Source of the DNA: Oligoflexales bacterium | GTDB taxonomy: Bacteria; Bdellovibrionota_B; Oligoflexia; Oligoflexales; JAPPIL01 | DNA: 64,000 bases | NCBI GenBank assembly: GCA_965226195.1 | Contig: OZ245333.1 | Coordinates: 562,167-626,166, forward strand | Reading direction: 5' to 3' | Part shown: positions 1 to 61,281 of the stretch, piece after piece | Position numbering within the stretch: the first letter of the stretch is position 1 | Layout: each line of letters starts with the position of its first letter | Position numbers and translations under genes: made by a program | Notes under the pieces: model-generated | What the model saw: only the letters and a program-made list of their open reading frames with translations | What the model was told of the DNA's origin: nothing | Databases searched by the model: none

Positions 1-261
1 CAAGCCTTCTGCTTCGTTAGTAATGAAATCCCTGTAAGCTTCTTGCTCCCAATCACCGCACGACAGCAAATTGGCACACGTTGCCACAACCATTGCCGTC
101 GTCAAAACTCTCTGTCCCAGCTTGCTGGTTTTGCTCGCGGCGATTATTTTGCTCACAGCCTGACTAGCGTTGCTAAAAGCACCCACGGCCGAACTATCAA
201 CCACAAACACACAGCAAAAGAACAAAGAAACAGCACACAATAAGCTAAACAACTTTCTCAC
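1..261 (-). CDS. 5' part of a secreted/lipoprotein with tandem signal peptides (runs off window start; not in ORF track)
   Basis: GTG at 261 with GAGGT RBS; open to base 1: MRKLFSLLCAVSLFFCCVFVVDSSA-VGAFSNASQAVSKIIAASKTSKLGQRVLTTAMVVATCANLLS-CGDWEQE. Confidence 0.75.
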   Translation of the reverse strand, partial: MRKLFSLLCAVSLFFCCVFVVDSSAVGAFSNASQAVSKIIAASKTSKLGQRVLTTAMVVATCANLLSCGDWEQEAYRDFITNEAEGL

Positions 262-31947: not shown

Positions 31948-33181
31948 ATGGAAAGGACATCGTTTAAATCTGTCTTCATTGCGGTATTTATCGGCACAGC
32001 ATTGATCGTCGTAGCACTGCTGTTCAACACCCACCGTCCGCAGCATGACACACAACAGCCACAAGCAGAGTTCGTGCGGGCAACAGGCAAGTGTGCCTCG
32101 TGCCATCTGCGTGAGACTGCCGCGGTCGTGCATCAGTTTGAGCGCAGCAAGCATGCACAGCTAGGTGTGAACTGCCTCGATTGCCACCGTCCTGTCGAAG
32201 GGCAGGAGGAGTATGCGCATCGTGGCTTTACGCTCGCGCAGCAACTAACCGCCAAAAATTGCAACCAGTGTCATCCAAGCGAGTATCAGCAGTTTTTGCG
32301 CAGTCGTCACGCCGCACCAGCCTGGGCCGCGGTGTATGGGGCGAGTGATTTCAGTGCAGCACAGATTGCACACGCGGAAAAATATCACAAAGGTGCCGTG
32401 CAGCGGGCGGCTAACAAATTGGCGATGCTGGAGGGTGATAGTGCCACTGCGGTCGGTTGCGCTGGTTGTCACGACATCGGCAAGCCCAACGCCGACGGCT
32501 CGATCGGTAGCTGCACTGACTGTCACGCACGGCACAGCACTTCGGTAGCGCTGGCACGTGAACCGCAGACTTGCGGGCAGTGTCACATGGGGCCGGATCA
32601 CTCGCAGCTTGAAATTTATCATGAGTCTAAACACGGAGCACTCTTCAACGCACAGCGTAATACGTTGAATTTAAGTGCCACACCACGCGAACTCACCACT
32701 GCCGACATGCCAATCCCCACCTGTGCCACTTGTCACCTCAGCGGTCTTGATGGACTGCGGGTAACACACGACACTATCGTATTGGCTGTTTGCCGCGATC
32801 TCACACAAGCGTCCAACGTATGCACAGGGACGCAACGCGATGCAAGAGGTCTGCCTGAAGTGCCATACTACCACGCCTGTTGAAAATTTTTACACGGAAG
32901 CAGAGAAGGTCGTTGCCAACACCAACGACAAGATCAAAGCCGGCAAAAAACTCATGCAAGCCCTGCGTGACGAAGGTTTGTTGACCGACACACCGTTCGA
33001 TGAGCCAATCGAGTTTCTTTATTTCGACCTGTGGCACTACTATGGTCGCACTGCCAAGCATGGTGCATACATGGGCGGGGCAGATTTTGTGCAGTGGCAT
33101 GGCAATTATGAGCTACTGTTAAAGATGATCAAAATGAAAAAGATGGCTCGTGAACTCAGAGAACGCAAAGCTAAACGCTGA
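31948..33181 (+). pseudogene. membrane-anchored octaheme (HAO-like) cytochrome c, frameshifted near 32775
   Basis: 7 CxxCH in 31948-32883 plus CLKCH in the shifted frame; CGQCHMGPDHSQ.EIY.ESKHG motif. Confidence 0.8.
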
Positions 33182-34048: not shown

Positions 34049-34085
34049 TTGGCTTGTTTTATTTTCTAATTTGGGGAGGTCTACT

Positions 34086-34688
34086 ATGAAACTTGGATCT
34101 GTTGCGAAACTGGTTGTGGTGGCATATGCATTGTGCTCAATGAGTGCGTTTGCCGCGGGTATCTTTGGGGAAAGGTCGAGTAGCGATGGCAGAAACTACG
34201 TCTCCTACTCCAAAGGAAAGGGGATAAGGATCTACGAAAACGCGCGTGATGAGAAGATCGAGTATGAGGTTACACTGAAAAGAGCTGTGCTCGATGATGG
34301 TAGGGATCTGCTTGAGTATAATTTTGTCAGCGGCAGTGACAACACCTATCAGCGTATCATCATAGATGAGGAGAGCGATGGCTTTCAGAAGATTTTCGTG
34401 CCGGCCAGCAGTGATGCGCAGCACGACTATAATTCCTATGTAGAAGCTGGCTGGGCACATAAAATAGAGTACGAAAAGCTGCAGAAAGAAGAAGGTACAG
34501 CAAAAAAACGCACGCTACTGATCCACTATCTCGACATGGACGGCAACAGGGTAACACATCATATACTTGCCTACAAAAGGGATGGCCAATGGGTGACAGC
34601 TGCCACAGGGTCGGTTGGCAATGCTAACGGTGTAATTTACATCTGGGGGCATGAGCTAGAGCAAGTAATCGAGCGCTATCCAGAATAA
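34086..34688 (+). CDS. secreted beta-rich hypothetical protein (paralog of 38225)
   Basis: GGAGG RBS; signal peptide; strong similarity to 38225-38827. Confidence 0.8.
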   Translation: MKLGSVAKLVVVAYALCSMSAFAAGIFGERSSSDGRNYVSYSKGKGIRIYENARDEKIEYEVTLKRAVLDDGRDLLEYNFVSGSDNTYQRIIIDEESDGFQKIFVPASSDAQHDYNSYVEAGWAHKIEYEKLQKEEGTAKKRTLLIHYLDMDGNRVTHHILAYKRDGQWVTAATGSVGNANGVIYIWGHELEQVIERYPE

Positions 34689-34830: not shown

Positions 34831-36315
34831 ATGCGTAGGGCGAGCAAGGTTCTGGTATGTTTCTCCCTAGTAATCGGCCTCTCTCCTGTAGGCAGCTCTG
34901 AAGTGCGAGCGTCAAACCCTGCTACACAGATAAAGAAGGCAGCGGCACACAGCTCATTGGGGGTACGGCTGCTCAATAAGGTGGCGCAATGGGGGACAAT
35001 CGTCTTGCTCTCCGCAGCTGCAACTACTGGCAACGTCGCCGCGCAAAACAAAGAAGCAACACAGACCGCACCACGGGTTAGGCAATCACGCTTTAACGGC
35101 GTTGTGGGGCATCATCGTGTTCTTCCCACCATCCCTTTACACGAGGTGCTCAAGGGAATCGATTACGATAGCCCCGAAGAGATCGATTACGGCTGGATTG
35201 AAGGCATGCTTGCATCGGGAGAGATGGATGTCAACGCCAGAAATGAAGAGAGCAACACAGCTCTGCACATAGTGGCTAAAGAACACTTCTATACCGACAA
35301 CTACGAAGATTTCAAGCTGACAAAGATTCTCTTGGCATACGGTGCTGACCCCACGTTAAAGAACTACGAAAGAAAAACCGCCCTCGACTATGCCTTAGAC
35401 TCTTCTTTCTGTTGCGTGGATAGAACTGCGGTGGAGATGGCGCGGTTACTGGTAGCTAAAGGGGCGGATGTGCATGAAGTTGATTACAGGGATCGTGCCG
35501 CCAGAGGCCTGGCCCTTCACAATGCACTGGAAGCCGCCGCGGTATTGGTAACGGACAGGCATAAGTTTATTAATCTGCTGGAAAAAGAAGAGGGTGGTAT
35601 TACTCGCAGCGTGCGAGATAAAGGCAAGCATCTTCTCAAACAGGCTGCTGAATGGGGTAACGCCGTTGTGGTTGAGGCACTGCTCGATTATGGCGTTGAC
35701 CCCAACGTCGGGCTGTTCGGGGTCGCATTATCGCGGCAAAGGACAATGGCGCGGCAAACAGTTATGAGTATCCTCATCGCCCGCGGTGCCGATATCAATG
35801 TCAGAGATGCCCAGCGGGGCAACACGCCGCTACACCGGGCCGTAGGGGAGGGCAATCTACGCAGCGTGGAAACATTGCTCGAAGGCCGTGCGCACCCTAA
35901 CATTGCCGATAAATCTGGCCAGACACCGCTGCATCGTGCCGCAGCTTACGGCGGGACGATGACAAGATTTGAGTTGGTGGGCATGCTCTTGGCAAGTGAT
36001 GCTGAGGTAAATATAAAAGATAACTACGGACACACCCCTTACGACTACGCAGTAGAAAATTATAAACTAGCTGTAGGAATACGTGCGCCGGCTGCCGCGG
36101 CTGCCGCAGCCATTCTGCTGCAAACAATGGTTGAAGACGAGGACGCACAAGGCAGAACTCCTGCGTACTGGGCAAAGTTGAGCGGCAGTGAAACTATTAA
36201 AAAGATAAGTGCAGGAGAAATGGAGATCGACCAACTGCATGACCGCACGACACGCCAGCTGGTGGTCGAAGAGCTGCTCAGGGCGATAGGTAATAGATGG
36301 TGGAAGAAACGATGA
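34831..36315 (+). CDS. ankyrin-repeat protein with tandem signal peptides
   Basis: SP1 ..EVRA, SP2 ..NVAA; NTALH, GNTPLH, GQTPLH repeats; TTGACA upstream. Confidence 0.9.
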   Translation: MRRASKVLVCFSLVIGLSPVGSSEVRASNPATQIKKAAAHSSLGVRLLNKVAQWGTIVLLSAAATTGNVAAQNKEATQTAPRVRQSRFNGVVGHHRVLPTIPLHEVLKGIDYDSPEEIDYGWIEGMLASGEMDVNARNEESNTALHIVAKEHFYTDNYEDFKLTKILLAYGADPTLKNYERKTALDYALDSSFCCVDRTAVEMARLLVAKGADVHEVDYRDRAARGLALHNALEAAAVLVTDRHKFINLLEKEEGGITRSVRDKGKHLLKQAAEWGNAVVVEALLDYGVDPNVGLFGVALSRQRTMARQTVMSILIARGADINVRDAQRGNTPLHRAVGEGNLRSVETLLEGRAHPNIADKSGQTPLHRAAAYGGTMTRFELVGMLLASDAEVNIKDNYGHTPYDYAVENYKLAVGIRAPAAAAAAAILLQTMVEDEDAQGRTPAYWAKLSGSETIKKISAGEMEIDQLHDRTTRQLVVEELLRAIGNRWWKKR

Positions 36316-36459
36316 CCTAATGCCGCAAGAGTGGCTGGCAACTGCTTGCTGGTGCGGGGGGATATTCAGCCAAACGATTGCTGCTTGACACTGCTTACTA
36401 TTGCTTTCTACAAGTAGAGGGAGGTTGGATCTGTAACAACGATTTTATAGGATATTGCT

Positions 36460-38052
36460 ATGTGTGTCGCAAGAAAGGCTTCAGTTCTGGTATGTCTCGC
36501 CCTAGTGATCAATCTCTCGCCTGTAGGCAGCCCTGAGGTGCGAGCTTCAAACGCAGTTACGAAGTTGAAGGATGTAGTGGTGCGCAGCCCGCTGGGGGCG
36601 AAAGCTCTCAACAAGGCTGTAACTTGGGGTGCGATTGCCTTATTCCCCATATCTGCCTTCACAGGCAACGTGCTGGCGAAAAACAGTGATATGCTTCATC
36701 CCGCGGAGCAGGTCGTGCAAGCGCAGTCTCCTAAAACTACAGAGGATAATGTTTCCTTCCGCATACCTCTGTATGATGCGGTAAAGAAACTTGATTACGA
36801 GCAGCTCAAAGAGTTGCTAGAGGCAGGAGAGGTAGATGTTAATGCTAGAGATGAGGAGGGTAATACGGCTTTGCACATAGTAGCTAAAGAACATCTTTAC
36901 AACTTCAGGGGCAACTCCCTGCTGAACCTTGTCTTAGCTTACGGTGTTGATGCCACGATAGTGAACGACGCGGGAAAAACAGCCCTATCGTATATTGAAG
37001 AGGAGGCTGAAGCTGTCGGCGAACCAGAGTATGCCATAGTTTTAGCCCATTGGGTGAAGGCAATGTATGGCATCAATGGTAAAGATAAAGACGGCACAAC
37101 ACCTCTCGGACACGCCTTGTCTTGGGCTGCATACCTCAGGGACATAGAACTGGCCCGCCAGTTGGTAGCCGAAGGTGCTGATGTACGTATTCCTGAATAC
37201 GACGGTTTTTTAGACATCTACAATGTTCTGGATGCAGCTGCCGTCTTGGTGATGGACAGGGACGCGTTTCTGTCGCTGGCAGAAGAACAAGAAGGAGGCA
37301 TTGCTGGCGTTGTCAAAGAACAGGGCAAACTCCTTCTCAAGATGGCTGCTGAATGGGGCAATGGAGTTGTGATCGATGTTCTGCTCGATCATGGTGTTAA
37401 TCCCAGTGTGGGGATGTTCAACGCATCGTATGTTCATGGTGATGGAGGCTCTCTTGTCGTGTCTGATAATGATCCTAATGATGAAATACTCAGCCTTCTG
37501 CTCTCCCGCGGTGCCGATGTCAACGTCAGGCACGAGCATGGTCATGCTCCACTTAACATAGCTGCGGAAGGGGGCAAACCTCGCACGGTGGAAATTTTAC
37601 TTACACATAGTGCTGATCCCAATGTTCCTGACAAGTGGGACATGACACCTCTGCACAGGGCAGCTAGTCGTTCTGTCTGGTATAGTTTTGAGATGGTAAG
37701 TATGTTATTGGCACGTGGTGCGGAAGCCAACGTTAAAGACGATGAAGGGAAAACTCCTTATGATAACGCGTTGAGGCGCTACAGAAATGCACATACAGAT
37801 AGCAAGCCATTAGCTACAGCAACTAACGCCCTCTTGCTACAAGCAATGGTCGGCGTTGAAGGCAAGGACGCACAAGGCAGAACTCCTGCGTACTGGGCAA
37901 AACTGAGTGGCAGTAAAACCGTTCAAAAGATAATTGCTAGTGAGATAGAAATCACTCAGTTATTCGACCAAGAAACACGCCAGCGGGTGAAACAAGAGCT
38001 GATCACAGCAGGAGAAGAGCTGGAAAAGGCAGAAAGAGAAAGGCGTAGATAG
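36460..38052 (+). CDS. ankyrin-repeat protein with tandem signal peptides (paralog of 34831)
   Basis: SP1 ..EVRA, SP2 ..NVLA; shared GRTPAYWAKLSGS C-terminal motif. Confidence 0.9.
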   Translation: MCVARKASVLVCLALVINLSPVGSPEVRASNAVTKLKDVVVRSPLGAKALNKAVTWGAIALFPISAFTGNVLAKNSDMLHPAEQVVQAQSPKTTEDNVSFRIPLYDAVKKLDYEQLKELLEAGEVDVNARDEEGNTALHIVAKEHLYNFRGNSLLNLVLAYGVDATIVNDAGKTALSYIEEEAEAVGEPEYAIVLAHWVKAMYGINGKDKDGTTPLGHALSWAAYLRDIELARQLVAEGADVRIPEYDGFLDIYNVLDAAAVLVMDRDAFLSLAEEQEGGIAGVVKEQGKLLLKMAAEWGNGVVIDVLLDHGVNPSVGMFNASYVHGDGGSLVVSDNDPNDEILSLLLSRGADVNVRHEHGHAPLNIAAEGGKPRTVEILLTHSADPNVPDKWDMTPLHRAASRSVWYSFEMVSMLLARGAEANVKDDEGKTPYDNALRRYRNAHTDSKPLATATNALLLQAMVGVEGKDAQGRTPAYWAKLSGSKTVQKIIASEIEITQLFDQETRQRVKQELITAGEELEKAERERRR

Positions 38053-38224
38053 AGCAGCGCTAAATATAGCAGAGGGGAAATAACCCTTCTGCTGCAGCTC
38101 TGACTTTTACGCGAAAAGTGGCACTGCGAAAAAAACCAAAAAAGACTTGCTGACAAAAAAAATGTCAGTATACTGCCCGTGCCGTTGTTGGCATGTTTTA
38201 TTTTTTCAATTTTGGAGATCTGTT

Positions 38225-38827
38225 ATGAAATTCTGGTCTGTTGTTACCCTAGCTATTGCAGCATGTACATTGTATTCGGTGAGTACGTTCGCCGCGGATA
38301 TTTTCAGCAAATCGTCTAGTGATAGTGGTGGATGCCAGATCTACACTGGTAAGGGGGAAATGCACTATGAAACTGCCCGTGATCAGGTAATCAGCTATGC
38401 GGTGACGCTGAAGGTGAGTCAACTCGGTGATGGCAAGGACTTGCTGGACTACAGCTTCGTTATCAACGGACAAGCGAACCGCTTTCCGATAATCATCGAC
38501 GAAGAAAGCGCCGCTTTTCAAAAGGTTCTCGTACCGACGAGCGATGATGCGCAGGACGACTATGCCTCTTACATCGAAACTGGCTGGAGTCATAAACTGG
38601 AGTATGAGGAAATACACCAAGATGAAGGCACGCCGAAAAAACGCACCACACTGTTCAGCTTCCTCGATGAAAACGGCAACAGGATCACAGAACACATTCT
38701 CGCCTACCGCAAGGCTGGGAAATGGCAGCTTACCTCCACTGGCTCAATTGGCAACACCGACGGAGTGATATTCATCTGGGTACACAAGCTATCACAGACA
38801 GATGAGTGCTCGCCGGCAACCAACTAG
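38225..38827 (+). CDS. secreted beta-rich hypothetical protein (paralog of 34086)
   Basis: Signal peptide; upstream ~100 bp similar to that of 34086. Confidence 0.8.
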   Translation: MKFWSVVTLAIAACTLYSVSTFAADIFSKSSSDSGGCQIYTGKGEMHYETARDQVISYAVTLKVSQLGDGKDLLDYSFVINGQANRFPIIIDEESAAFQKVLVPTSDDAQDDYASYIETGWSHKLEYEEIHQDEGTPKKRTTLFSFLDENGNRITEHILAYRKAGKWQLTSTGSIGNTDGVIFIWVHKLSQTDECSPATN

Positions 38828-38884
38828 TTCAGCAGTGTTGATAACACTTAGCCTCTAGCTCTGTTACTTGCCTATCATCGACCC

Positions 38885-38924
38885 TATCCACTGCCTGACA
38901 GACCCATTGTGTAGGCAGTGGATA
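38885..38924. terminator. hairpin between secreted gene and atp operon
   Basis: TATCCACTGCCT / AGGCAGTGGATA 12-bp inverted repeat. Confidence 0.4.
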
Positions 38925-38983
38925 AAACCTCTTGAGTAAACTTTTATTTTGCAGTATTTAATCCTGCTACTGCGAGGAGTAAG

Positions 38984-39442
38984 ATGGCAGACTTCAATCT
39001 AGTGCCAGTGCCGAGAGTCTTGTTGGTGCAAGCAGGCATCTTCATCGCCAACACCATCATCATCAAGAAGCTGCTGATCGAGCCTTACTTGAAACTAAAG
39101 GCAAAGAGACTCGATTATACTGAACGCAAGCAAGCTGCGGCAACAGCGCGCTTTGCTGCACTGGAGAAGGAGTTGGCAGAGCTGCGGGCACAGCGACGTA
39201 GCAGGCTTAGTGCACTAGCTCAGTTGCGGCGCAAAAAGTACGAGCAGGCACGCGCACGGCGCGAAGAGCTTATCGTTACCGCCACCCGTGAATCCGAAGC
39301 TGCCATCAAGGAGGCAAAGTCAGGTTTGCGCAAGGAATTCGAGGCGGCCCAAGCCGATCTCGATAGCACTGTCAGTGATCTCAGTCAGGAGATGTTTGAC
39401 CTCTTGTTATCACCAAACGGGGAAAAACATGCACGGCGTTGA
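38984..39442 (+). CDS. atpF2: ATP synthase F0 subunit b'
   Basis: N-terminal TM then coiled coil; first gene of atp cluster. Confidence 0.75.
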   Translation: MADFNLVPVPRVLLVQAGIFIANTIIIKKLLIEPYLKLKAKRLDYTERKQAAATARFAALEKELAELRAQRRSRLSALAQLRRKKYEQARARREELIVTATRESEAAIKEAKSGLRKEFEAAQADLDSTVSDLSQEMFDLLLSPNGEKHARR

Positions 39443-39911
39443 GTTTTTAAGCGGGGTGCTGTTCCCCTTTCTCAATTTTTTTATGTTCCTCGCCGTGCTA
39501 CTTTATTTTATCCGCAAGCCGTTGCAGCAGTTTGCCTACAACCAGCACGAGAGTTTTCTCCACAGTGCCCGTACTGCCAGCGCCAAAGCCGCAGAGCTGG
39601 AAACACTAGAAGCTGAAATGCAAAGTGAGCGCACTCGCATCGACAAAGACCTGCCCGCCCTCGAAGCACAAACGATTGCCGATGCCGAGCAGGAAGCGGC
39701 AGTACTAGCGGCGGAAGGCGGCAAGGTCGCGGCACAGATAAGAAGCGAAGTGCAGCAAGTTACCACTGCCTTTCGCACCGAACTGCGGGTCGAACTCAAG
39801 CGCATCATCTTGCAGCACGTGCAACAGCAGCTGCAAGAGCGTCTACCACAACACACAAAACGCAGCGATGCTCGCGCGGTGCGTTCCTTGCAAGCAGGGG
39901 GTAAGCGATGA
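39429..39911 (+). CDS. atpF: ATP synthase F0 subunit b
   Basis: LNFFMFLAVLLYFIRKPL plus coiled coil. Confidence 0.85.
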   Translation: MHGVEFLSGVLFPFLNFFMFLAVLLYFIRKPLQQFAYNQHESFLHSARTASAKAAELETLEAEMQSERTRIDKDLPALEAQTIADAEQEAAVLAAEGGKVAAQIRSEVQQVTTAFRTELRVELKRIILQHVQQQLQERLPQHTKRSDARAVRSLQAGGKR

Positions 39912-40429
39912 ACATTGCCGCACGCTATGCCCGTGCCCTATTTGCACTTGATGGTGATGCCGCAGCACGGCAAGAGCAACTCGCGGTCATCAGCGAGGCT
40001 TGCACCGCGCCACAAGCACTTGCCTTCTGGCAACATCCGGGCGTGAAGCTGCGCGAGCGTCAGGAACTTGCCGCCGCAGTTGCTGCCCGCGTTGACTCCA
40101 GCAATAAGCAGCTGCACAACTTCTTGCTACTGCTGGTCGAACAGCAGCGCATGCACCTGTTGCCAGCCATAGCCACCTTGCACTCAGAACTGGTGAAAAA
40201 ACAGGCAGGAATCGTCGATGTCGTCGTGACTTCTTCGCACCCGCTGCAGGCAGAACAGCAGGAGGAAATTAAAAAAACAGTTACGGCCTATTTACAGACA
40301 AAAATAACCATCGCCTTCACCGTCGATGCTCGCATCTTGGGTGGCCTCATCGTTGCCTGGGAACATCGTGTGTGGGATTTCAGTCTCAGCACAAAACTGA
40401 AGGCCATGGTTAAACACGCAGTAGGGTGA
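39908..40429 (+). CDS. atpH: ATP synthase F1 subunit delta
   Basis: AARYARALF; VD..ILGG..D.S. Confidence 0.92.
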   Translation: MNIAARYARALFALDGDAAARQEQLAVISEACTAPQALAFWQHPGVKLRERQELAAAVAARVDSSNKQLHNFLLLLVEQQRMHLLPAIATLHSELVKKQAGIVDVVVTSSHPLQAEQQEEIKKTVTAYLQTKITIAFTVDARILGGLIVAWEHRVWDFSLSTKLKAMVKHAVG

Positions 40430-40452
40430 CTTGCAACCCTTCAACAAGTAAC

Positions 40453-41145
40453 TCAGTCATCTGCTGCATCGAGCACTTCTTCAGATGTTTCTTCCCGCGT
40501 GCGATGATGGAAGTTTCCCTCACCAAACAGGTCTGTGTAGCTAATAAAAACTCCGTTATTGAAGGTCAAACCATCTCTTGCCACTGTCAACGGAAAACTA
40601 CCGTTCTCCTTAACTAGTGCATTTATGCGCGAGAATACCTTGTCAGCAACTCCTGCGTCATTTGGAATAACAAACTGAAGCATCCAAAAGTACAAGCCAG
40701 TTGCACCGATAGCACCAATCTTAACCTCGTTAGCGATCCAAAGTTGTGAATCACCATGAAGCTTTTCGACGACTAGATCCATGACATCTTCCACACCGCT
40801 ACGGTATGCTTCTCCTATGTCTTTTTCAGCCTCACGGTGCTTGCTAAAGGCCAAATATGAGGAAAGCGTAGCGCTGAAAAAAGAAAGACTTACCAACGTT
40901 CCAACGCCAGGGTGCTCCGCTAACCCTAAAATATGCATAAGCGAAGCACTACCAGCGCAAAGCGCTGTGCTGCAAAATAGGGCAACCAAGGTAGATTCAC
41001 GCTCCATAACTTCAACCACCTTACCAGACAACCTTTGTAGCGCATTGCGTGCACCCTTCGCCTCAGCCTGAGCTTGACCACTAACCAGCACTAGAGCGGT
41101 GGACAACAACACAACCATCAAGACGCGTTTCATTACATTTGCCAT
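40453..41145 (-). CDS. signal-peptide-bearing membrane protein inserted antisense within the atp operon
   Basis: GAGGAG RBS; SP (AQA), basic linker, further hydrophobic segments. Confidence 0.7.
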   Translation of the reverse strand: MANVMKRVLMVVLLSTALVLVSGQAQAEAKGARNALQRLSGKVVEVMERESTLVALFCSTALCAGSASLMHILGLAEHPGVGTLVSLSFFSATLSSYLAFSKHREAEKDIGEAYRSGVEDVMDLVVEKLHGDSQLWIANEVKIGAIGATGLYFWMLQFVIPNDAGVADKVFSRINALVKENGSFPLTVARDGLTFNNGVFISYTDLFGEGNFHHRTREETSEEVLDAADD

Positions 41146-41545
41146 GTAGATACTCCTCAACTGTAAGTATTGATAACTACGCCCGTCCCACTAGGCTGGT
41201 TTTGTATAACAAAAACTATTGTTATGTAAACATTGAAATAAATAAATGAGTAACACAACTAAAATTACAGGATATTTTTTGATTTTAAATATAAAACCAG
41301 TATAGAGAAGATACTCCAACAAGCGGTGATGACAGGCGAACTGGTTGAAGTTATGGCGGCGAGCGCGGTGCTGCTTCAAGCACCGGTGCCGTGCAACTGT
41401 GTGCCTGAGGCCATAGTTGCACAAAGTTGTTGAGTATTGTCGTGCTTCGTGGTAATTGCTCCTGTCACTGTGGAGACACAGTAGATGGAAAGTTTCAGCC
41501 TAGTGCCGCGGGTACAGGTGATCGTTGGACATGTGGTGAGAAAAA

Positions 41546-43054
41546 ATGGAAAGAATCAAAGTCAGCGAAGTCAGCAAAATTATCAGCGAACGCATCAAGT
41601 CCTACGAGTATCAGGAGAATCTCATCGAGACCGGCACGGTGATGTCAGTGGGCGATGGCATTGCCCGTGTCTATGGCTTGCAGGAGGTGATGGCAGGCGA
41701 ACTGGTTGAATTCGCCGGCGGCGAACGTGGCATAGTCTTGAATCTCGAAGAGGACAACGTCGGTATCGCGATTTTCAGCGATTGCAAGGCAATTCGTGAA
41801 GGTGATCAGGTCAAGCGCTTGCAGCTGATCAACTCCATTCCTTGCGGCGAAGCGGTAATCGGCAGAGTGCTCGATGCGCTCGGCAATCCCATCGACGGCA
41901 AGGGGGAGATCGCTGCCGCCGAACAAGGGCAGGTTGAAGTCAAGGCACCGGGCATTATCGCGCGCAAAAAAGTATGCGAGCCACTGCAGACAGGGTTAAA
42001 AGTTATCGATGCACTCACCCCCATTGGCCGCGGCCAGCGGGAGCTGATTATCGGTGATCGGCAGACGGGCAAGACAGCGATCGCCATCGACACGATCATC
42101 AATCAAAAAAAAGAAGACGTGGTCTGCATTTACGTCGCCATCGGGCAGAAAGCCTCTACCATCGCCAAAATCGTTGACACGCTGCAAAAACACGGAGCGA
42201 TGGACTATACCGTTATTCTTGCCGCAACTGCCATTGATCCTGCCCCGATGCAGTTTCTCGCCCCCTACTCTGGCTGTCGCATCGGCGAATACTTTCGTGA
42301 CCGCGGCAAGCACGTCGCCATCTTCTACGATGACCTGACCAAGCAGGCGGTCGCCTACCGTGAACTATCACTCTTGCTGCGCCGCCCACCGGGACGTGAA
42401 GCTTATCCCGGCGATGTCTTCTACCTGCACAGCCGTCTGCTCGAACGCGCCTGCAAACTCAACGACGATCTCGGTGGTGGCTCATTGACAGCCTTTCCAA
42501 TCATTGAAACGCAGGCGGGCGATATTTCCGCTTACATTCCCACCAACGTTATTTCGATTACCGACGGGCAGATCTTTCTGGAAGCGGATTTGTTTTTCAG
42601 CGGTGTGCGCCCAGCAATGAACGCTGGCTTGTCGGTGTCGCGGGTCGGCGGCGACGCACAAGTGCCGTGTGTGCAAAAAGTTGCGGGCACGTTGCGGCTA
42701 GAACTGGCACAGTATCGGGAACTGGCTGCTTTTGCGCAGTTTGGCTCGGATCTCGACGAGGCGACACAAAAAACATTGCGACGCGGCGAGCGGCTAGTGG
42801 AAATTTTGAAACAGCCGCAGTTTGAACCGCTCGATGTCGGCACACAAGCGGTGCTGCTGTTCGCCGCCACGACAGGTGCGCTCGACAGTTACGAGGTGAA
42901 GGACATTGCCGCGTGGATGCACGGTCTGTTCGCCTACCTGAAAGACCACTGCGGAGCACTGCTCGACAAAATCAGAGGACGAGCGAAACTCGACGAAGTG
43001 CGGGAGGAAATGCAGGCAGCGTTGGATAAATTTGCACAGGGGTATGCGAGCTGA
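41546..43054 (+). CDS. atpA: ATP synthase F1 subunit alpha
   Basis: [18 protein letters not shown]. Confidence 0.99.
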
Positions 43055-43936
43055 ATGGAAACGCTGAAAGAAATTAAAAAACGCGTCACCAGTGTCAAGA
43101 ACACGCAGAAAATCACCAATGCGATGAAACTCGTCTCTTCAGCAAAGTTCAACAAAGCGAACAAAGCAGTGCGCGGCGCACATCCTTATAGCAGCGAGCT
43201 CAGCAAGTTGATGACACAGCTGGTAGGCGGGGACGTGGAACACCCGCTGATGCACGAGCACGACGCAACCACGCAAGTGCTGATGGTCGTCTTCAGCACC
43301 GACCGCGGTCTCTGTGGTGCATTGAACGCCAACCTGTTGAAACATTTGCGCGGTGAGTTATTGCAGCGTTTTGGCAAAAATTTTGCTACACGAGTTGATT
43401 TTATTGCGCTGGGAAAAAAAGCCGAGCAGTTTTGTCGTAAAAATAAATTCAACCTCGTGCAAGTCGAGCATCGCGTTGAGCATCTCGATCAGTCCAGCTG
43501 GCCGCTCGCCTTTTCAAAGCAATTAAGCACGCACTTTCGGCAAAAAAAATATGCTGGCATCTATCTTTCTTATCAGCTCTTCATCTCGGCCTTGCTGCAA
43601 CGTCCGCTGTTGACACAAATTCTCCCCATCGGTGCGCACGAGGCAGAAGAGGAGACGGAGGATGAGCTGCACGACGACGCGGCGTTGTTTTTAATCGAGC
43701 CGCAACGTAAGGCGGTGGTCGAGCAGCTGCTGTTGCGTTATGCGTCTAACCAGATTTTTCGGGCAATTTTGAACAGCGTCGCGTCCGAGCATCGGGCACG
43801 CATGAATGCGATGGACAATGCCACCAACAATGCCAAGAAAGTAGTGAAGGAGTTGACGTTGCAGTATAACAGGGGGCGGCAGGCCGCGATTACTAAGGAG
43901 TTGATCGAAATAACTGCAGGTGTGCAGGCGATTTAG
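43055..43936 (+). CDS. atpG: ATP synthase F1 subunit gamma
   Basis: KITNAMKLV, DRGLCG, RQAAITKEL. Confidence 0.98.
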   Translation: METLKEIKKRVTSVKNTQKITNAMKLVSSAKFNKANKAVRGAHPYSSELSKLMTQLVGGDVEHPLMHEHDATTQVLMVVFSTDRGLCGALNANLLKHLRGELLQRFGKNFATRVDFIALGKKAEQFCRKNKFNLVQVEHRVEHLDQSSWPLAFSKQLSTHFRQKKYAGIYLSYQLFISALLQRPLLTQILPIGAHEAEEETEDELHDDAALFLIEPQRKAVVEQLLLRYASNQIFRAILNSVASEHRARMNAMDNATNNAKKVVKELTLQYNRGRQAAITKELIEITAGVQAI

Positions 43937-45343
<1,407 letters not shown>

Positions 45344-45351
45344 GAATAGCA

Positions 45352-45768
45352 ATGTCGAGCGCAACTTTAGCCGTAAAAATCATGACGCAGCGCGCCGAGC
45401 TTGCCGTGTTGGAAGCGGCGGAGGTCAATCTTCCCGCCACTGATGGCTATCTTGGCATTCTGGCCGGACACGCACCGTTGATTGCGACAATCGGGGTCGG
45501 GGTTGTCAGTTTGCGAGACAACAACGACAAACCGCCACAGCGTTATTTCATCGCCAACGGTATCTTCAGTGTCACCGACAACCGCGTGCAAATTCTCGCC
45601 GATGTCGCCGAAAGCAAAGAGCAGATCGATATTGAACGTGCGCAAGCAAGCAAGGCACGTGCCGAGCAACGCCTCAAAGAGGCATTGCATAGCAACATCG
45701 ACATCGTACGCGCTTCCGCTGCGCTCCAACGTGCTCTACAACGCCTTGCCTTCAGGCAAGGTGGCTAG
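45352..45768 (+). CDS. atpC: ATP synthase F1 subunit epsilon
   Basis: G.LGILAGHAP; IDIERA. Confidence 0.95.
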   Translation: MSSATLAVKIMTQRAELAVLEAAEVNLPATDGYLGILAGHAPLIATIGVGVVSLRDNNDKPPQRYFIANGIFSVTDNRVQILADVAESKEQIDIERAQASKARAEQRLKEALHSNIDIVRASAALQRALQRLAFRQGG

Positions 45769-45795
45769 ATGTTTTTTGTTTTAGGGAGATTTGTT

Positions 45796-46326
45796 ATGCG
45801 AAGGTTGGGTTTGTCTTTGCTTTTGTTATTCGGTGTAGCTGAGGCACGCGAGTACTTGGGAACTGGCGGTTGGAACATCCCCTTTGATAGTGAGCAGGGA
45901 AAGTTGCGTTTCGTTTATGCTACTAAAGAATGGTGGAAGACTGATTACTATCCTAGTAGTGCTTCCTTTACCTTAGCTTTTGATTTTGAAAACCCTCCGC
46001 GCGGGTGGTTGCCCAACAATCTGACTGTGCGTGGCAATATCTATTTCGACAACAGACTAGATGAGTTTGAAGGTGGGGGAATATATGCTGCCGATGATTG
46101 GAATAAAATTATCGGTTGGTACAATTGTCGTTCAGAAACCAACGATCGCCGTATCTGTAACCTGAGTTTTCTGGAGGGAAAAAATAGTTACGGTGAACGG
46201 GTGTGGCTTAAGTTGCAAAAAACTTTCGAGAATGGCACATTGTGTTATCTTTCTGGCTATATGTATGAGTGTCAATGGTGCGACGAACAATGGCTGGTCT
46301 GGAACAGCAAACGCCTGTGTGATTAG
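45796..46326 (+). CDS. secreted Cys/Trp-rich hypothetical protein
   Basis: Signal peptide (AEA); YLGTGGW..LVW..L pattern loosely like 34086/38225. Confidence 0.7.
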   Translation: MRRLGLSLLLLFGVAEAREYLGTGGWNIPFDSEQGKLRFVYATKEWWKTDYYPSSASFTLAFDFENPPRGWLPNNLTVRGNIYFDNRLDEFEGGGIYAADDWNKIIGWYNCRSETNDRRICNLSFLEGKNSYGERVWLKLQKTFENGTLCYLSGYMYECQWCDEQWLVWNSKRLCD

Positions 46327-46353
46327 TTTAAACTAGACAGGAGATTATTTATC

Positions 46354-47796
46354 ATGAAAACTTTTATTTTGATGATAGCTGTGCTGGTATGGTCGAGTTC
46401 TGCCTCTGCAAGTAGCGCACAAGGGCTGCTGCATGCCTCTAAAGCAAGGATCGCAGCAAAATTGAAAAACAATCCACTTACTCACAAAGCTGCAACTTTA
46501 GGTCTTGCAGCCCTATTCCTTATGCCTATCGTGCCAAGTGAAGTATTGGCGAAGGAAGTGGCTCGTTTACAGGCTGAGACCAATGTCCAACAAGTTGCTG
46601 GTGGGGAAAATCAAGACACTTCTAGTGCTCTTAGCATTATGGCACGTGATAAACTTGAAGATGTGGTTGCAATTACCAGCACAACCACATCCGAAGTCAG
46701 CGAGCTTGAAATTCCCGATCGCAACAAAATTTTCATACTTGCCAGTATTTTCGGGGATTTGGATGTGACCAAATACCTTGTCAGCACTGGGTTGCAACAT
46801 GTTGACGGCTTCGGTATCACCGATGCTCTTGCCAAATCTGTGTACTATGGGCACATGGATGTTTTCGAATATCTGCTGCCTCTCGCTGGTGATCATAAGC
46901 AAGCCAATGTACGTCAGGAAGCACAGCTTTCTAGTCAACGCACAGAGCGTGCCAATGCATTAATTGAAAACGCAATATATACTTTCTACGCACTCGACGA
47001 AAGCGAAAACCCTCTTTCTGTTCGCCACCAAGCTTTTCGTTTGGCGCTCAAATTCGGAGACTTGCCGGTGGTCAAACTTATGTTCGATCAGAATGATGAA
47101 GGAGTACAAGAACTTTACGATACTTTCTACGGGGTTCATAGCACCATGAGGTGGGCTGCGCGCTATGGTCATTTAGATATCGTTAAGTATGCCTGGGAAC
47201 AGGGAGGAGGGTCAGCTGAAGATAACTATTTTCGTTCTAACAGTATGTATGCGGCTGCACTCAAAGGCCATCTGGACATAGTTAAATACCTCCATTCGAT
47301 GGGGCTTTCTCCCTTCATAGGCTTAGAGGATGCATTTGATGGTGGTCACTTAGATACAATCAAATATCTGCTAGATGCCGCTTTTCGAGAGGCCACCGAC
47401 GATAGTGACTACGACTACCTCCAAAAAATCGTGTATAGAGCACTCATTGCTGGGGGTGATAGAGCTAGGGGGGTAAAATTCCAAAAAATCGTGTACAGAA
47501 CACTCATTATGGCTGCATATAGAGGGAATTTGGAGGTTGTTAAAAACCTTCTGCCCCATGCAGACGGGAAGAGGCTGAATAACTTAAACTCAGCCATGCA
47601 AACAGCAACTCGCGGCGGACACTTGGACATCGTTAAATACCTCTTGGCTGAAGGTGCTGATGATATCGACCGTTCTTTACAGGAGGCAAGGCAATCCATA
47701 GAGTACGGTCTTAGGCGTGGCGAGGACGTTAAAAACCATCAGCTTGTCTTGTATTACCTCACTGAAGTGAAGTCTCGTAGTTTGCTTCAAGACTAA
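46354..47796 (+). CDS. ankyrin-repeat protein (GHLDIVKYL type) with tandem signal peptides
   Basis: SP1 ..ASA, SP2 ..LMPIVPSEVLA; many GHLD(I/T)VKY repeats. Confidence 0.9.
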   Translation: MKTFILMIAVLVWSSSASASSAQGLLHASKARIAAKLKNNPLTHKAATLGLAALFLMPIVPSEVLAKEVARLQAETNVQQVAGGENQDTSSALSIMARDKLEDVVAITSTTTSEVSELEIPDRNKIFILASIFGDLDVTKYLVSTGLQHVDGFGITDALAKSVYYGHMDVFEYLLPLAGDHKQANVRQEAQLSSQRTERANALIENAIYTFYALDESENPLSVRHQAFRLALKFGDLPVVKLMFDQNDEGVQELYDTFYGVHSTMRWAARYGHLDIVKYAWEQGGGSAEDNYFRSNSMYAAALKGHLDIVKYLHSMGLSPFIGLEDAFDGGHLDTIKYLLDAAFREATDDSDYDYLQKIVYRALIAGGDRARGVKFQKIVYRTLIMAAYRGNLEVVKNLLPHADGKRLNNLNSAMQTATRGGHLDIVKYLLAEGADDIDRSLQEARQSIEYGLRRGEDVKNHQLVLYYLTEVKSRSLLQD

Positions 47797-48022
47797 TATG
47801 TTGCTGAACGAAAGCTGAGGGGAAAACGTTATCGTCATCGGCTAAGATGGAGAGAATAGCTGCGCAAAAACTCACCGGGAGGGAAAACCCACTTACATGT
47901 TGATACATCTTGCTTGTGATTACCTGTAAGGGCATCACAAGCGTTGTGTGTCCTACTGAGCAAACAATCACGAATGAGCTTACTACTCACTGTTTTCCCT
48001 TTCTGCGTTTCCATCCCCCGCA

Positions 48023-49576
48023 TCAGTCCTCTCTTATCTTAATCAGTTCTTGAATTACCGGAGTGTTGCGTATGCCGTCCAGTCCACCAGACATGGGGAT
48101 GAACTTGCCCTCGCCCGCAATCAGTTCTTGCACGATCTTACTGCCGCTCAACTCAGCCCAATATGTGGCAGTTCTACCCTCGCCGTCCTTGCCACCCATT
48201 GCCTGCAGTAAGATAGCAGCAGTCGCAGCTAGCGGTGACTTTTCATCAGCAGAATGATACCTGTGTTTTTTCACCACATAATCGTAAGCGGCATACCCAT
48301 CGTTATCTAGCGCAAGAGCATCAACATCATGTGCCATCAGCATGTTCGTCATCACAAAAATTCGCATTGCCTCGCCGAAACCACTGTAAAATTTTTCCGC
48401 AGCCGCGTGGAGAGCTGTCCAGCCCTGTGCATTAACAATGCTGGGATTGCCACCATGTTTCAACAGAGTCTCCACTCCCAAGTAGTTGCCAGTGTAGGCC
48501 GCGACATGCATGGCAGTGAAGCCATTTTCAGGATGTATTGCATTAGCATCAGCACCGCGGTTGAGAAGGGTGGCCAACATCGTGGCATTAGAATCAGTGA
48601 CATGACTGACTACCGTGCCTATGCCGCGAATTTGCGCAGCATGGAATATACCCGCGCTGGGATTAGTCCCATGATCGAGCAGCACCTTAACCACGTCACC
48701 GTTGTTTTCACTCACTGCGGCAGTTAGCAAATCACCACCCCATTGCTCAACAACAGGGACAATGCCACCATACTCTGCGGCTAAAGCTAGAAACTTTTCT
48801 CCATCAGCCAGCTCTGCTCCTAACTCTAGAGCGTAGTAATATCCACGCTGTCCTTTCTCCGTGAGACGAACGTCAGCCCCTCTTGCCACCATTTCCTTGG
48901 CCAAACGTGTGTCGCCTAGATAACTTGCCCAACGCAAGGCATAATCCAGCGGCACACTGCCACCAAAACCACCATTGATGCCATAGATAGCCTCTGACAA
49001 CAGAGCCATGAACCCAAGCAGCTCAGGATCATCTCCTGCATCACCGCTGTCAATGTAGGAATAAGCTGATTCGCCTGCATCGTTCTCGGCTTCAGGATCA
49101 GCTCCATGCACAAGCAGGAGTCGCATTAACTTGTAGGCTTTGCTTTCATCAACAGGGTAATTCACAACAATTTTGAGCAAAACCGTGTTACCATACTCGT
49201 CTCTGGCATTGACATCTACTTTACCTTGTTCGAGCAACTTCTTCAGTCGCTGGTAATCAGATTCATTTTCTTCGCGATAGCTATATTCCCGATAGATTTC
49301 GTGCAAGGAAATAAGGTCTTGCTTTGCCTTAGCGGGAGATGACTGTTGTATGAGCTGTGCAGGATGAGCTACATCTTTTGCCAACACCTCAACGGGCACT
49401 ATAGGCATGAGCAACAGCGCACCAGTTCCCAACACGGCTGTCCCTCTGACTAACTTCGTAACTACTGGATTGTGCTTTATCGCTGTCTTCATGCCGGCCA
49501 CAGAAGCCAAGCCACTAGTACTGCATACTGCAATACTAACCAGCAACACGAGCACTATAACCCAAAACCGTTTCAT
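48023..49576 (-). CDS. ankyrin-repeat protein (34831/36460 family body) with tandem signal peptides
   Basis: SP2 ..LMPIVPVEVLA; VDVNARDE.GNT; GRTATYWAELSGS. Confidence 0.9.
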   Translation of the reverse strand: MKRFWVIVLVLLVSIAVCSTSGLASVAGMKTAIKHNPVVTKLVRGTAVLGTGALLLMPIVPVEVLAKDVAHPAQLIQQSSPAKAKQDLISLHEIYREYSYREENESDYQRLKKLLEQGKVDVNARDEYGNTVLLKIVVNYPVDESKAYKLMRLLLVHGADPEAENDAGESAYSYIDSGDAGDDPELLGFMALLSEAIYGINGGFGGSVPLDYALRWASYLGDTRLAKEMVARGADVRLTEKGQRGYYYALELGAELADGEKFLALAAEYGGIVPVVEQWGGDLLTAAVSENNGDVVKVLLDHGTNPSAGIFHAAQIRGIGTVVSHVTDSNATMLATLLNRGADANAIHPENGFTAMHVAAYTGNYLGVETLLKHGGNPSIVNAQGWTALHAAAEKFYSGFGEAMRIFVMTNMLMAHDVDALALDNDGYAAYDYVVKKHRYHSADEKSPLAATAAILLQAMGGKDGEGRTATYWAELSGSKIVQELIAGEGKFIPMSGGLDGIRNTPVIQELIKIRED

Positions 49577-59988: not shown

Positions 59989-60219
59989 TTTGATAGTGGC
60001 AGGAGGAAAAATACCCAAACTTACTTAGCAAAAATGTAAATGCTGGCACGCACTCGTTGTGCCACTAAATGCCTGCTCACCCTAATGCTGACCAGCTACG
60101 CCGTCTCCATGCCGCGGCACCCAAATCAGATGATGCAAGCGGAGCACCGCTTTGACAAACATACTGGAGGTTGATAAAAGCGGCGCGGCGATGGTAGGTA
60201 TACTGTTCGGGGCATGGTA

Positions 60220-61281
60220 ATGAAACAACCACACACGTTGCTAACAGGGCTGATTGTTCTGCTGTCGTTGCTCGGCAACGGCGGCTGTGCAGCTCAGGCT
60301 GCATCTAAACTCAAACAACTATCGGACAAGCAGGTGATGCTACCGTTGAAAAAAACGATAACGAGTGCACTAGTCGCACTGTTGTTAGCAACGGGGACGT
60401 ATCAGCCTTTGGGCAAGATGCAAGCTGAACCCGCGGTTGAGGTCAAAATAATCGCCCCTGGCTTTAGAGTGCCACACTGGAGACTTGCAGGGCGCATCGA
60501 GCAACTCAAAGCTCGCGGTTTCCAAGTTTCCCTCGCCCAACCTAGCAACAACAGCATTGAGGCACGCAAGCAAGCCTTAATCGAAGCGTTGACTGACCCT
60601 GACTGTGTCAACTTTGTCTGTGCACGGGGTGGTTACGGCACTTCCGACCTGTTGCCGTATATCCCTTACGATGACTTGGATAATCCGAAACTGGTCATCG
60701 GTTACTCAGACATCTCCTCACTCATCAGTGCATTGTGGACGCAGCGTGGCATCATCGGCATCAGTGGGCCGATGCCCGGTGCGGTGACGTGGAACATCGG
60801 CAGCGAAGAGATGCGCGTCCTGCTCGGCATTATGCGCGGCACTGTCACAACAGGCAACATGCCTGTGCAACGGCAAGAAAACAGCAACACGAACGACAAC
60901 ACGATAGAGGGCACGCTGTTTGGCGGTGACATGTCTGTTTTGACCAACTTGATCGGCACACCCTACATGCCAGCCGCACTCGACGGCTATATCGTTTTTC
61001 TTGAAGCTGTAGGTGAAAACACCTATCGTATCATGCGTTACCTCAATCAATGGCAACAGAGTGGCATGCTAGACGGTGTGCGTGCCATAGTTCTTGGTCG
61101 ATTTGACAAACTCGGCGGCAACCAAGCTAATCTCTACAAACGTTTCGCCGCCCGTGTCAGTTGTCCTGTTTATACCACCAGTTCTTTCGGGCATCGCCAC
61201 CCGCTCTACCCAATACCCGTCGGTGGGCACGGAAAGATAGCTGACGGCAAACTAATCTGGCAACTGCCCGAACCGCGATGA
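60220..61281 (+). CDS. LD-carboxypeptidase (S66) with tandem signal-peptide-like leader
   Basis: RGGYG, GYSDIS (Ser), FLEA (Glu), FGH (His). Confidence 0.9.
   Translation: MKQPHTLLTGLIVLLSLLGNGGCAAQAASKLKQLSDKQVMLPLKKTITSALVALLLATGTYQPLGKMQAEPAVEVKIIAPGFRVPHWRLAGRIEQLKARGFQVSLAQPSNNSIEARKQALIEALTDPDCVNFVCARGGYGTSDLLPYIPYDDLDNPKLVIGYSDISSLISALWTQRGIIGISGPMPGAVTWNIGSEEMRVLLGIMRGTVTTGNMPVQRQENSNTNDNTIEGTLFGGDMSVLTNLIGTPYMPAALDGYIVFLEAVGENTYRIMRYLNQWQQSGMLDGVRAIVLGRFDKLGGNQANLYKRFAARVSCPVYTTSSFGHRHPLYPIPVGGHGKIADGKLIWQLPEPR

Follow-up and report, generated by a model that had tools for sequence, protein, structure and literature searches.

Candidate tandem export leaders on unrelated proteins of an Oligoflexales bacterium

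Analysis of a 64,000-nucleotide stretch of the genome of an Oligoflexales bacterium (assembly GCA_965226195.1, contig OZ245333.1, positions 562,167 to 626,166; hereafter the window) revealed seven genes whose products begin with two signal-like units in series. Each leader is composed of a Sec-type signal peptide (SP1), a basic linker and a weaker second hydrophobic stretch (H2), which ends in an AxA-like site or in a lipobox cysteine. The seven genes encode four ankyrin-repeat proteins (ank1 to ank4), an LD-carboxypeptidase (LdcA), an orphan protein (the 41145(-) gene) and the product of the 261(-) gene, and about 60 genes with the layout were found across the genome, which consists of one contig of 2.95 Mb (49% G+C, 91.6% complete). 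We tentatively interpret the layout as a clade-specific tandem export leader in which both halves would be real signal peptides, removed by two successive cuts at the bacterium's own inner membrane, and we place the probability of this reading at roughly 45%.

Tandem leaders in the window

Pfam ankyrin repeats were found on all four ank proteins, and the SP1 of each consists of a Lys/Arg n-region, a hydrophobic core and a small -3/-1 site. The ankyrin linkers are 20-26 amino acids (aa) long, with a net charge of +4 to +5 and at most one acidic residue, and lead into an uncharged H2 of approximately 20 aa that terminates in GNVAA, GNVLA, SEVLA or VEVLA. A first-pass annotation, made from the letters of the window, had reported tandem leaders on these four open reading frames (ORFs), whose translations are as quoted there. 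It had also seen the layout on the 261(-) protein, the LD-carboxypeptidase and, more loosely, the 41145(-) protein, and we could measure it on all three. The features are as follows, in window coordinates.

34831..36315 (+): ank1, ankyrin-repeat protein, 494 aa, with tandem leader (Pfam Ank, E 1e-29; ATG start, AAGG upstream)
34831..35049 (+): ank1 leader; SP1 34831-34911 (aa 1-27, ending in EVRA); linker 34912-34980 (23 aa, net +4, no Asp or Glu); H2 34981-35049 (23 uncharged aa, ending in GNVAA; 19-residue insertion-energy sum +6.4)
36460..38052 (+): ank2, ankyrin-repeat protein, 530 aa, with tandem leader (ORF, Pfam; paralogue of ank1, 45% identity)
36460..36678 (+): ank2 leader; SP1 36460-36546 (29 aa); linker 36547-36615 (23 aa, net +4); H2 36616-36678 (21 aa, ending in GNVLA)
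46354..47796 (+): ank3, ankyrin-repeat protein, 480 aa, with tandem leader (ORF, Pfam)
46354..46551 (+): ank3 leader; SP1 46354-46410 (19 aa, ending in ASA); linker 46411-46488 (26 aa, net +5); H2 46489-46551 (ending in PIVPSEVLA)
48023..49576 (-): ank4, ankyrin-repeat protein, 517 aa from the ATG at 49576, with tandem leader (ORF, Pfam)
49379..49576 (-): ank4 leader; SP1 49576-49505 (24 aa, ending in GLA); linker 49504-49445 (20 aa, net +4); H2 49444-49379 (ending in PIVPVEVLA)
40453..41145 (-): orphan protein, 230 aa, with loose tandem leader, between atpH and atpA on the opposite strand; SP1 41145-41065; linker 41064-40996 (net +1, four Asp/Glu); H2 40995-40918 with a C-x4-C pair (FCSTALC)
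60214..61281 (+): LdcA (Peptidase_S66, by Pfam), with tandem leader; SP1 60214-60300; linker 60301-60354 (18 aa, net +4); H2 60355-60414
1..261 (-): 261(-) protein, 480 aa, of which the first 87 aa lie in the window (genome 560985-562427); SP1 261-187; linker 186-109 (26 aa, net +4); H2 108-55, ending in ATCANLLSCG with a C-x5-C pair, lipobox-like

BLAST comparison of the mature parts revealed that ank1, ank2 and ank4 are mutual paralogues. No orthologue of ank3 was detected at E <= 1e-10 among four related genomes, no Pfam or NCBIfam family matched the 41145(-) orphan, and an ESM Atlas query with residues 1-80 of ank1 gave no usable match.

Frequency of the layout and range of its carriers

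The genome was scanned on a crude gene call of 2261-2263 genes with a strict rule, under which SP1 must have a cleavage site, the linker must measure 10-55 aa and carry a net charge of at least +2, H2 must be uncharged and hydrophobic, and no membrane helix may follow. The strict scan returned 55 of 2263 genes, present in every 400-kilobase (kb) bin. Inspection by eye indicated that approximately 45 of the 55 hits are correct and that some 20 further cases, including ank1 and ank4, were missed. The curated list, chosen by eye, holds 64 entries, and about 2.5% of the genome's genes carry a tandem leader. Four entries with an H2 misplaced by the parser (g2581492, g679703, g14739 and g2068500) were left out of the cysteine, flank, core and start counts (n = 60), five entries were left out of the insertion-energy count (n = 59), and six entries as well as linkers under 14 aa were left out of the amphipathicity analysis (n = 56). 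The H2 bounds of g2396981 were set by hand, and hydrophobicity was scored on the Kyte-Doolittle, Hessa-type insertion (without position terms) and Eisenberg scales.

The layout is commoner than chance. Applied to 400 kb of a genome (G015) that belongs to the same order but to a different family, the strict rule gave one unconvincing hit in 332 genes and the loose scan gave none; the difference from 55 of 2263 is significant (Fisher p = 0.007). The second segment lies 8-40 aa behind the first in 56 of the proteins that have an N-terminal hydrophobic segment and a single further one; uniform placement would predict 26. The window itself holds 7 of the 64 curated cases (p = 5e-4). A genome of the same genus (G001) yielded 5 strict hits in 273 genes, four of which are convincing orthologues, and sequence comparison indicates that the layout is kept in orthologues from related Oligoflexales genomes (LdcA, binding proteins and the G001 orthologues).

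According to BLAST of the mature parts, the carriers span at least 20 unrelated families, a far wider range than that noted when stacked signals were first described on unrelated proteins of the window. The carriers include four LivK-type solute-binding proteins, a polysaccharide deacetylase and the LD-carboxypeptidase. Among 40 proteins scanned against Pfam, a set that includes a few single-signal neighbours, 26 have no family.

SP1 and its translation start

Each of the 64 curated SP1 units combines a small -3/-1 pair with the n-region, the 7-15-residue core and the c-region of a Sec/signal peptidase I substrate, and the energy sum of their 12-residue core is -2.0, compared with -1.42 for the single signals of the genome. 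SP1 is predicted to be a strong, canonical Sec/signal-peptidase-I signal that LepB would cleave. Analysis of the start regions placed SP1 at the true N-terminus, with a Shine-Dalgarno (SD)-like motif at the SP1-side start in 50 of 60 curated genes, 42 of those starts being ATG. Where the start is unambiguous, an SD-like 4-mer was found in 18 of 29 cases, compared with 12% at random positions. In the window such a 4-mer precedes the SP1 start of six of the seven genes, LdcA having none. The four ankyrin genes all begin at an ATG with AAGG, AGGA, AGGAG or AAGGAG ahead of it; in ank4 it is the third ATG of the ORF (49576) that has AAGGAG upstream, and the 261(-) gene starts with GTG.

A second start-like codon is frequent behind SP1, which raises the reading that translation begins in the linker, with H2 as the only signal and SP1 translated rarely or not at all. 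The linkers of the 60 proteins contain 105 GTG, TTG or ATG codons, an SD-like motif precedes such an inner codon in 14 of the proteins, and one public gene call (P0019) begins within the linker. The SD-like motif is nevertheless seen at only 20 of the 105 inner codons (19%, near background) as opposed to 50 of 60 SP1 starts, and eight of the 60 proteins have no inner start codon at all. Untranslated DNA would not be expected to maintain an in-frame canonical signal ahead of some 60 genes, still uninterrupted by stops or frameshifts in their orthologues; the LdcA orthologues keep SP1 in frame at 62-77% identity. We therefore rejected an internal-start artefact as the general explanation on the basis of SD motifs and start codons, and consider it highly improbable. 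The first-pass annotation had argued that the starts are not mis-called since most second signals lack a Met. Its conclusion holds, although its premise needs amendment: the ank4 linker does contain a Met, and most linkers contain GTG or TTG.

A paralogue in one of the tandem families (genome 1789400-1790528 (+)) has its SP1 in a different frame from its linker and H2, and its leader has been broken by a single-base indel (a frameshift) or by an assembly or sequencing error. This gene, at 1789719 (+), was considered as a case of H2 without SP1 and rejected, as SP1 sits upstream in another frame; it therefore provides no evidence for H2 working alone.

Charge, hydrophobicity and end motifs of H2

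The linker averages approximately 24 aa with a net charge of +4, contains 20% Lys plus Arg (Lys being more frequent than Arg) and 3.6% Asp plus Glu, and is mildly amphipathic, with a mean z of 0.64 relative to shuffles and 11 of 56 linkers above 1.64. A long n-region would be expected to have a similar composition. The 19-residue insertion-energy sum of H2 has a median of +4.1 and exceeds +1 kcal/mol in 55 of 59 cases, compared with -1.1 for multipass helices, and H2 appears too weakly hydrophobic for a plain transmembrane anchor, in agreement with the earlier view that the second unit is more than that. Net charge is +2.75 over the 15 aa that precede H2 and -1.27 over the 15 aa that follow it. 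In 56 of 60 cases the preceding flank is more positive than the following one, and in no case is it less so. Judged by its flanks, H2 is oriented as a signal and not as a stop-transfer segment.

These properties bear on the reading that the leader anchors a domain left in the cytoplasm, either through a hairpin of SP1 and H2 or through a cleaved SP1 followed by H2 as a stop-transfer segment (N-out, C-in). A few H2 units would be hydrophobic enough (energy sum of +1 or less in 4 of 59), and the same genomes hold cytoplasmic LdcA copies; the LdcA of Escherichia coli is cytoplasmic. The genome also encodes an Hsp70-family protein of 648 aa (genome 55324-57270 (+)) in which a signal is followed by a long, true membrane helix, which would tether its ATPase domain to the membrane. 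The anchor reading is very unlikely, as H2 is too weak in the other 55 cases, the flanking charges run contrary to those of a stop-transfer segment in 56 of 60, and the binding proteins and the polysaccharide deacetylase would end on the wrong side of the membrane.

The ends of H2 point to two flavours, a signal-peptidase-I type with Pro or Gly followed by AxA, and a lipoprotein type with a lipobox cysteine that is often followed by Asp or Glu. Among H2 units without a lipobox, a small -3/-1 pair with an upstream Pro or Gly was found in 26 of 37, compared with 304 of 706 transmembrane-like stretches (p = 0.002). About half of the H2 units terminate in a bacterial lipobox ([LVI][ASTVI][GAS]C), ahead of which lie a positively charged n-region and a short hydrophobic core. 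The lipobox cysteine lies at residue 52-100 of the precursor, unlike that of a lipoprotein signal placed at the precursor N-terminus. Asp or Glu follows 13 of 32 lipobox-type ends, compared with 13 of 210 single lipoprotein-like signals; Asp at position +2 is the known retention signal of E. coli lipoproteins.

Cysteines in H2 are mostly paired: among the 60 curated proteins, 33 have a pair, 26 have none and one has a single cysteine. In the paired class the additional cysteine lies 3-8 residues upstream, with an exact C-x4-C spacing in 20 of 33, and in the binding proteins and many other carriers the second cysteine of the pair falls within L-[ST]-[GAS]-C. The pair may form two overlapping lipoboxes or a disulfide. 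Signal cores are unusually rich in cysteine throughout this genome, where 74 of 479 single-signal proteins have two cysteines 2-8 residues apart, and the single signals have no preferred cysteine spacing.

Leader evolution in two carrier families

Comparison of the LivK-type binding proteins with their homologues suggested which half of the leader is the older. In 21 close homologues, whose sources include complete chromosomes of 2.2-3.2 Mb, SP1 and the linker are followed by an H2 ending in A-C-G-L-T-G-C with Asp next. Distant homologues of about 380 aa have a single lipoprotein signal, and their lipobox cysteine aligns with the second cysteine of H2. The lipobox cysteine is conserved in 24 of 24 aligned binding proteins, and the extra H2 cysteine is confined to the tandem clade. 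In this family H2 is thus homologous to a bona fide lipoprotein signal, in a genome in which Lgt and LspA are both present. The alignment indicates that H2 is the ancestral signal, with SP1 and the linker as a clade-specific addition in front.

The LdcA family presents four groups. The first consists of 18 tandem orthologues that share 58-99% identity and keep the leader; the second of three paralogues (P0099-P0101) that have an SP1-type signal and a short basic stretch and lack H2; the third of many signal-less, cytoplasmic copies, partly in the same genomes; and the fourth of signal-less enzymes of other phyla. From this distribution, the whole leader appears to have been built onto a cytoplasmic ancestor, and the SP1-only form shows that SP1 would suffice for export. 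In an AlphaFold2 model of LdcA computed with 37 sequences, residues 1-72 form two helices and coil with a predicted local distance difference test (pLDDT) score of 37-69, and the confident fold starts at residue 75 (pLDDT of at least 90), placing the leader outside the modelled fold.

A proposed model of two successive cuts at the inner membrane

The genome holds one gene each for LspA, LepB, SecY and SecA, two for Lgt and three for secretins. No sign of a second bacterial translocon was found in the genome, SecY and SecA being single-copy. The Lgt genes are located at 28460-29254 (-) in the window and at 2821562-2822293 of the genome. The second Lgt was considered as dedicated machinery and rejected: at least two Lgt matches turned up in every one of 21 genomes searched across the order, and the gene pair therefore does not track the clade-specific leader. 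LepB of this genome was itself caught by the loose scan.

Both units have the hallmarks of cleaved signals, which suggests to us that both are used. As SP1 and H2 could not both lie N-in/C-out at the same time across a non-hydrophobic linker, we propose a sequential model. SP1 would take the nascent chain to SecYEG and be cut by the single LepB. The basic linker would stay on, or drop back to, the cytoplasmic side in keeping with the positive-inside rule, and would then serve as the positive n-region of the second, weaker signal. H2 would insert as a second loop and be cut either by LepB or, after modification by Lgt, by LspA. The products would be an ordinary periplasmic protein or lipoprotein and a freed basic-hydrophobic peptide of about 45 aa. 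A possible benefit is that a strong targeting signal is set before a weak processing signal, or that proteins retained at the inner membrane are sorted. Both cleavages, their order and the benefit are what we infer from these features. As the title of a 1985 study by Hayashi et al. (J Biol Chem 260:5753) has it, internalized prolipoprotein signals are reportedly modified and processed in E. coli.

Several points weigh against the two-cut model. We know of no demonstrated natural case in which a linker returns to, or stays on, the cytoplasmic side for two successive loop insertions. The removal of both signals yields the same product as a single signal, which leaves the benefit unexplained, and the retention of H2 in orthologues, despite the existence of SP1-only LdcA paralogues, suggests that H2 adds something lasting. 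The positive linker was a selection criterion, and therefore only the negative downstream flank counts as independent evidence for the orientation of H2. The enrichment of cleavage motifs behind H2 is modest (70% versus 43%). The 12-residue core of H2 is weaker than that of single signals, in a comparison for which H2 was picked more loosely, with different thresholds. In the 14 proteins with an SD-preceded inner start codon, a minor second translation start may exist. In the 400-kb sample of another genome of the genus (G002), 4 of 342 genes passed the strict scan and eight the loose scan, none convincing by eye; elsewhere this genome does carry tandem LdcA and binding-protein genes. Finally, in a study with endoplasmic reticulum (ER) microsomes (Finidori et al. 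1987, PMC2114505), a second signal was translocated without being cleaved and did not act as a stop-transfer.

The SP1-only LdcA paralogues lend real weight to another reading, possible but doubtful in our view, in which SP1 is the sole working export signal and H2 crosses the membrane uncleaved and stays with the linker on the mature protein. There it would tether the protein from the periplasmic face of the membrane or act as a second address, for the outer membrane, for vesicles or for a membrane of the host, with C-x4-C as a possible disulfide. SP1 is the stronger unit and H2 is weak enough to pass the translocon (above +1 in 55 of 59). With SP1-only LdcA paralogues in existence, H2 must add something, and H2 and linker are kept together in orthologues. 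The mild amphipathicity of the linker and the fixed C-x4-C in 20 of 33 cysteine-bearing H2 units fit as well, and the microsome study offers a precedent from the ER. Three observations favour cleavage instead: the lipobox is kept among homologues and shares ancestry with a normal lipoprotein signal, Pro/Gly and AxA motifs follow H2, and the charge bias matches that of an N-in signal.

The first-pass annotation had gone further and proposed that removal of SP1 exposes an address for the host ER, a mitochondrion, a prey cell or another membrane. This proposal found no support as a general function: a host-organelle address is unlikely because about half of the H2 units end in bacterial lipoboxes, H2 shows homology to a normal signal, housekeeping envelope proteins are among the carriers and the machinery (SecY, SecA, LepB, LspA) is single-copy. 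Binding proteins, a deacetylase and LdcA as carriers, and the excess of Lys over Arg in the linker, also speak against a host address. The ankyrins alone might have a further role outside the cell. We likewise consider it unlikely that a clade of host-associated Oligoflexales uses a two-key sorting code, with SP1 as the key to Sec and the linker plus H2 as a separate address or device. If it did, the linker and H2 could direct a second membrane step (outer membrane, vesicles, host or symbiosome membrane), sort inner-membrane retention against release through the paired cysteines or tandem lipoboxes, or yield a family of basic-hydrophobic peptides, about 45 aa long, that would themselves be functional products.

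Relation to known signals

Signal peptides rank among the best-characterised sorting signals, and a single one suffices for Sec export. Stacked units are found in the bipartite presequences for the thylakoid lumen, the mitochondrial intermembrane space and complex plastids, which are removed in two steps and whose second unit resembles a bacterial signal. Those presequences serve two membranes, each with its own translocon, whereas here SecY, SecA, LepB and LspA are single-copy, leaving no second translocon and peptidase, and housekeeping envelope proteins are among those that carry the leader. E. coli leader peptidase has an N-terminal helical hairpin with a basic loop and a large domain outside. 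It resembles the present layout in its two hydrophobic segments with a basic loop between them, but here SP1 has a positive n-region and a cleavage site, neither of which would be required of an N-out helix, and H2 is too weak for a membrane helix.

The layout shares its grammar with the extended signals of type V secretion, which are described in PMC2805444 as N1-H1-N2-H2-C, with a C-terminal half that resembles a classical Sec signal. In either case two charged and two hydrophobic regions precede one protein. The present leaders differ in that H1 amounts to a full signal peptide, AxA site included, and in that lipoprotein signals make up half of the second units. They are also longer (about 70 aa) and are found on ankyrins, binding proteins, peptidoglycan enzymes and orphan proteins. 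The likeness supports a reading in which the whole leader is one composite signal of this kind, as Henderson and Desvaux described for long autotransporter signals (PMC2805444), with H1 as an uncut extension for targeting or pacing and a sole cut after H2. Positive charge on both sides of H1 would disfavour its stable insertion, and the ancestral cleavage site is carried by H2. We nevertheless regard the composite signal as quite unlikely. The textbook small -3/-1 site and polar c-region of SP1, present in 64 of 64, would be needless if SP1 stayed uncut. None of the 40 scanned proteins matched the ESPR Pfam family at E <= 0.01, and no carrier is an autotransporter. The leader, at about 70-75 aa, is also longer than the extended autotransporter signals, for which PMC2805444 gives only at least 40 or more than 50 residues.

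Two experimental systems bear some resemblance to the two-cut leader. The fusions of Hayashi et al. 1985, by their title, placed a lipoprotein signal behind an N-terminal extension; theirs was an artificial construct, and the leaders here are natural, conserved and found on dozens of genes. In Finidori et al. 1987 (PMC2114505), a second signal, identical to the first, was placed behind a working one; it stood there behind a whole luminal domain and was translocated uncut, whereas here H2 lies about 24 aa behind SP1 and has a strongly basic flank of its own and cleavage motifs. A literature search, with supplements outside its scope, retrieved no description of a natural bacterial tandem signal and likewise none of tandem or double lipoboxes; searches on Oligoflexales, ankyrins and symbionts returned ecology papers only. 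NCBIfam curated models gave no meaningful match to ten isolated leaders. We regard the tandem leader as a variety of the extended or bipartite signal peptides, with a modest chance that it represents a new step in sorting. Its spread over so many families suggests that envelope proteins of this lineage undergo a sorting or processing step that has gone unrecognised. Signal-peptide and topology predictors, like gene callers, will misannotate the carriers as a signal plus a membrane helix, or will start them in the linker, which would distort secretome and effector predictions for these symbiont genomes.

Neighbouring genes in the window

The ank1-ank2 block is bracketed by two paralogous genes for small secreted proteins without a Pfam family (34071-34688 (+) and 38147-38827 (+)). 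In contigs of a public run, X9, position 34546 is joined to 38693 with 13 other letters in between. The X9 strain therefore lacks the ank1-ank2 block. The block is thus a cassette that varies between strains, and recombination between the bracketing paralogues probably accounts for its gain or loss. Contigs of a single public RNA run cover only parts of 38226-38840 and of atpA/atpG, leaving the ankyrin genes uncovered.

F-type ATP synthase genes occupy 38984-45768 and encode two b-type subunits, delta, alpha, gamma, beta and epsilon, named from the translations alone without a family search. No gene for an a or c subunit was seen beside this cluster. The tandem-leader orphan (ORF 40453-41160, opposite strand) splits the cluster between delta and alpha. 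Further upstream, 31948-33181 (+) holds an ORF for a multihaem c-type cytochrome followed by a small CxxCH ORF; the cytochrome gave weak NCBIfam matches, far below threshold, to hydrazine dehydrogenase and NrfH models.

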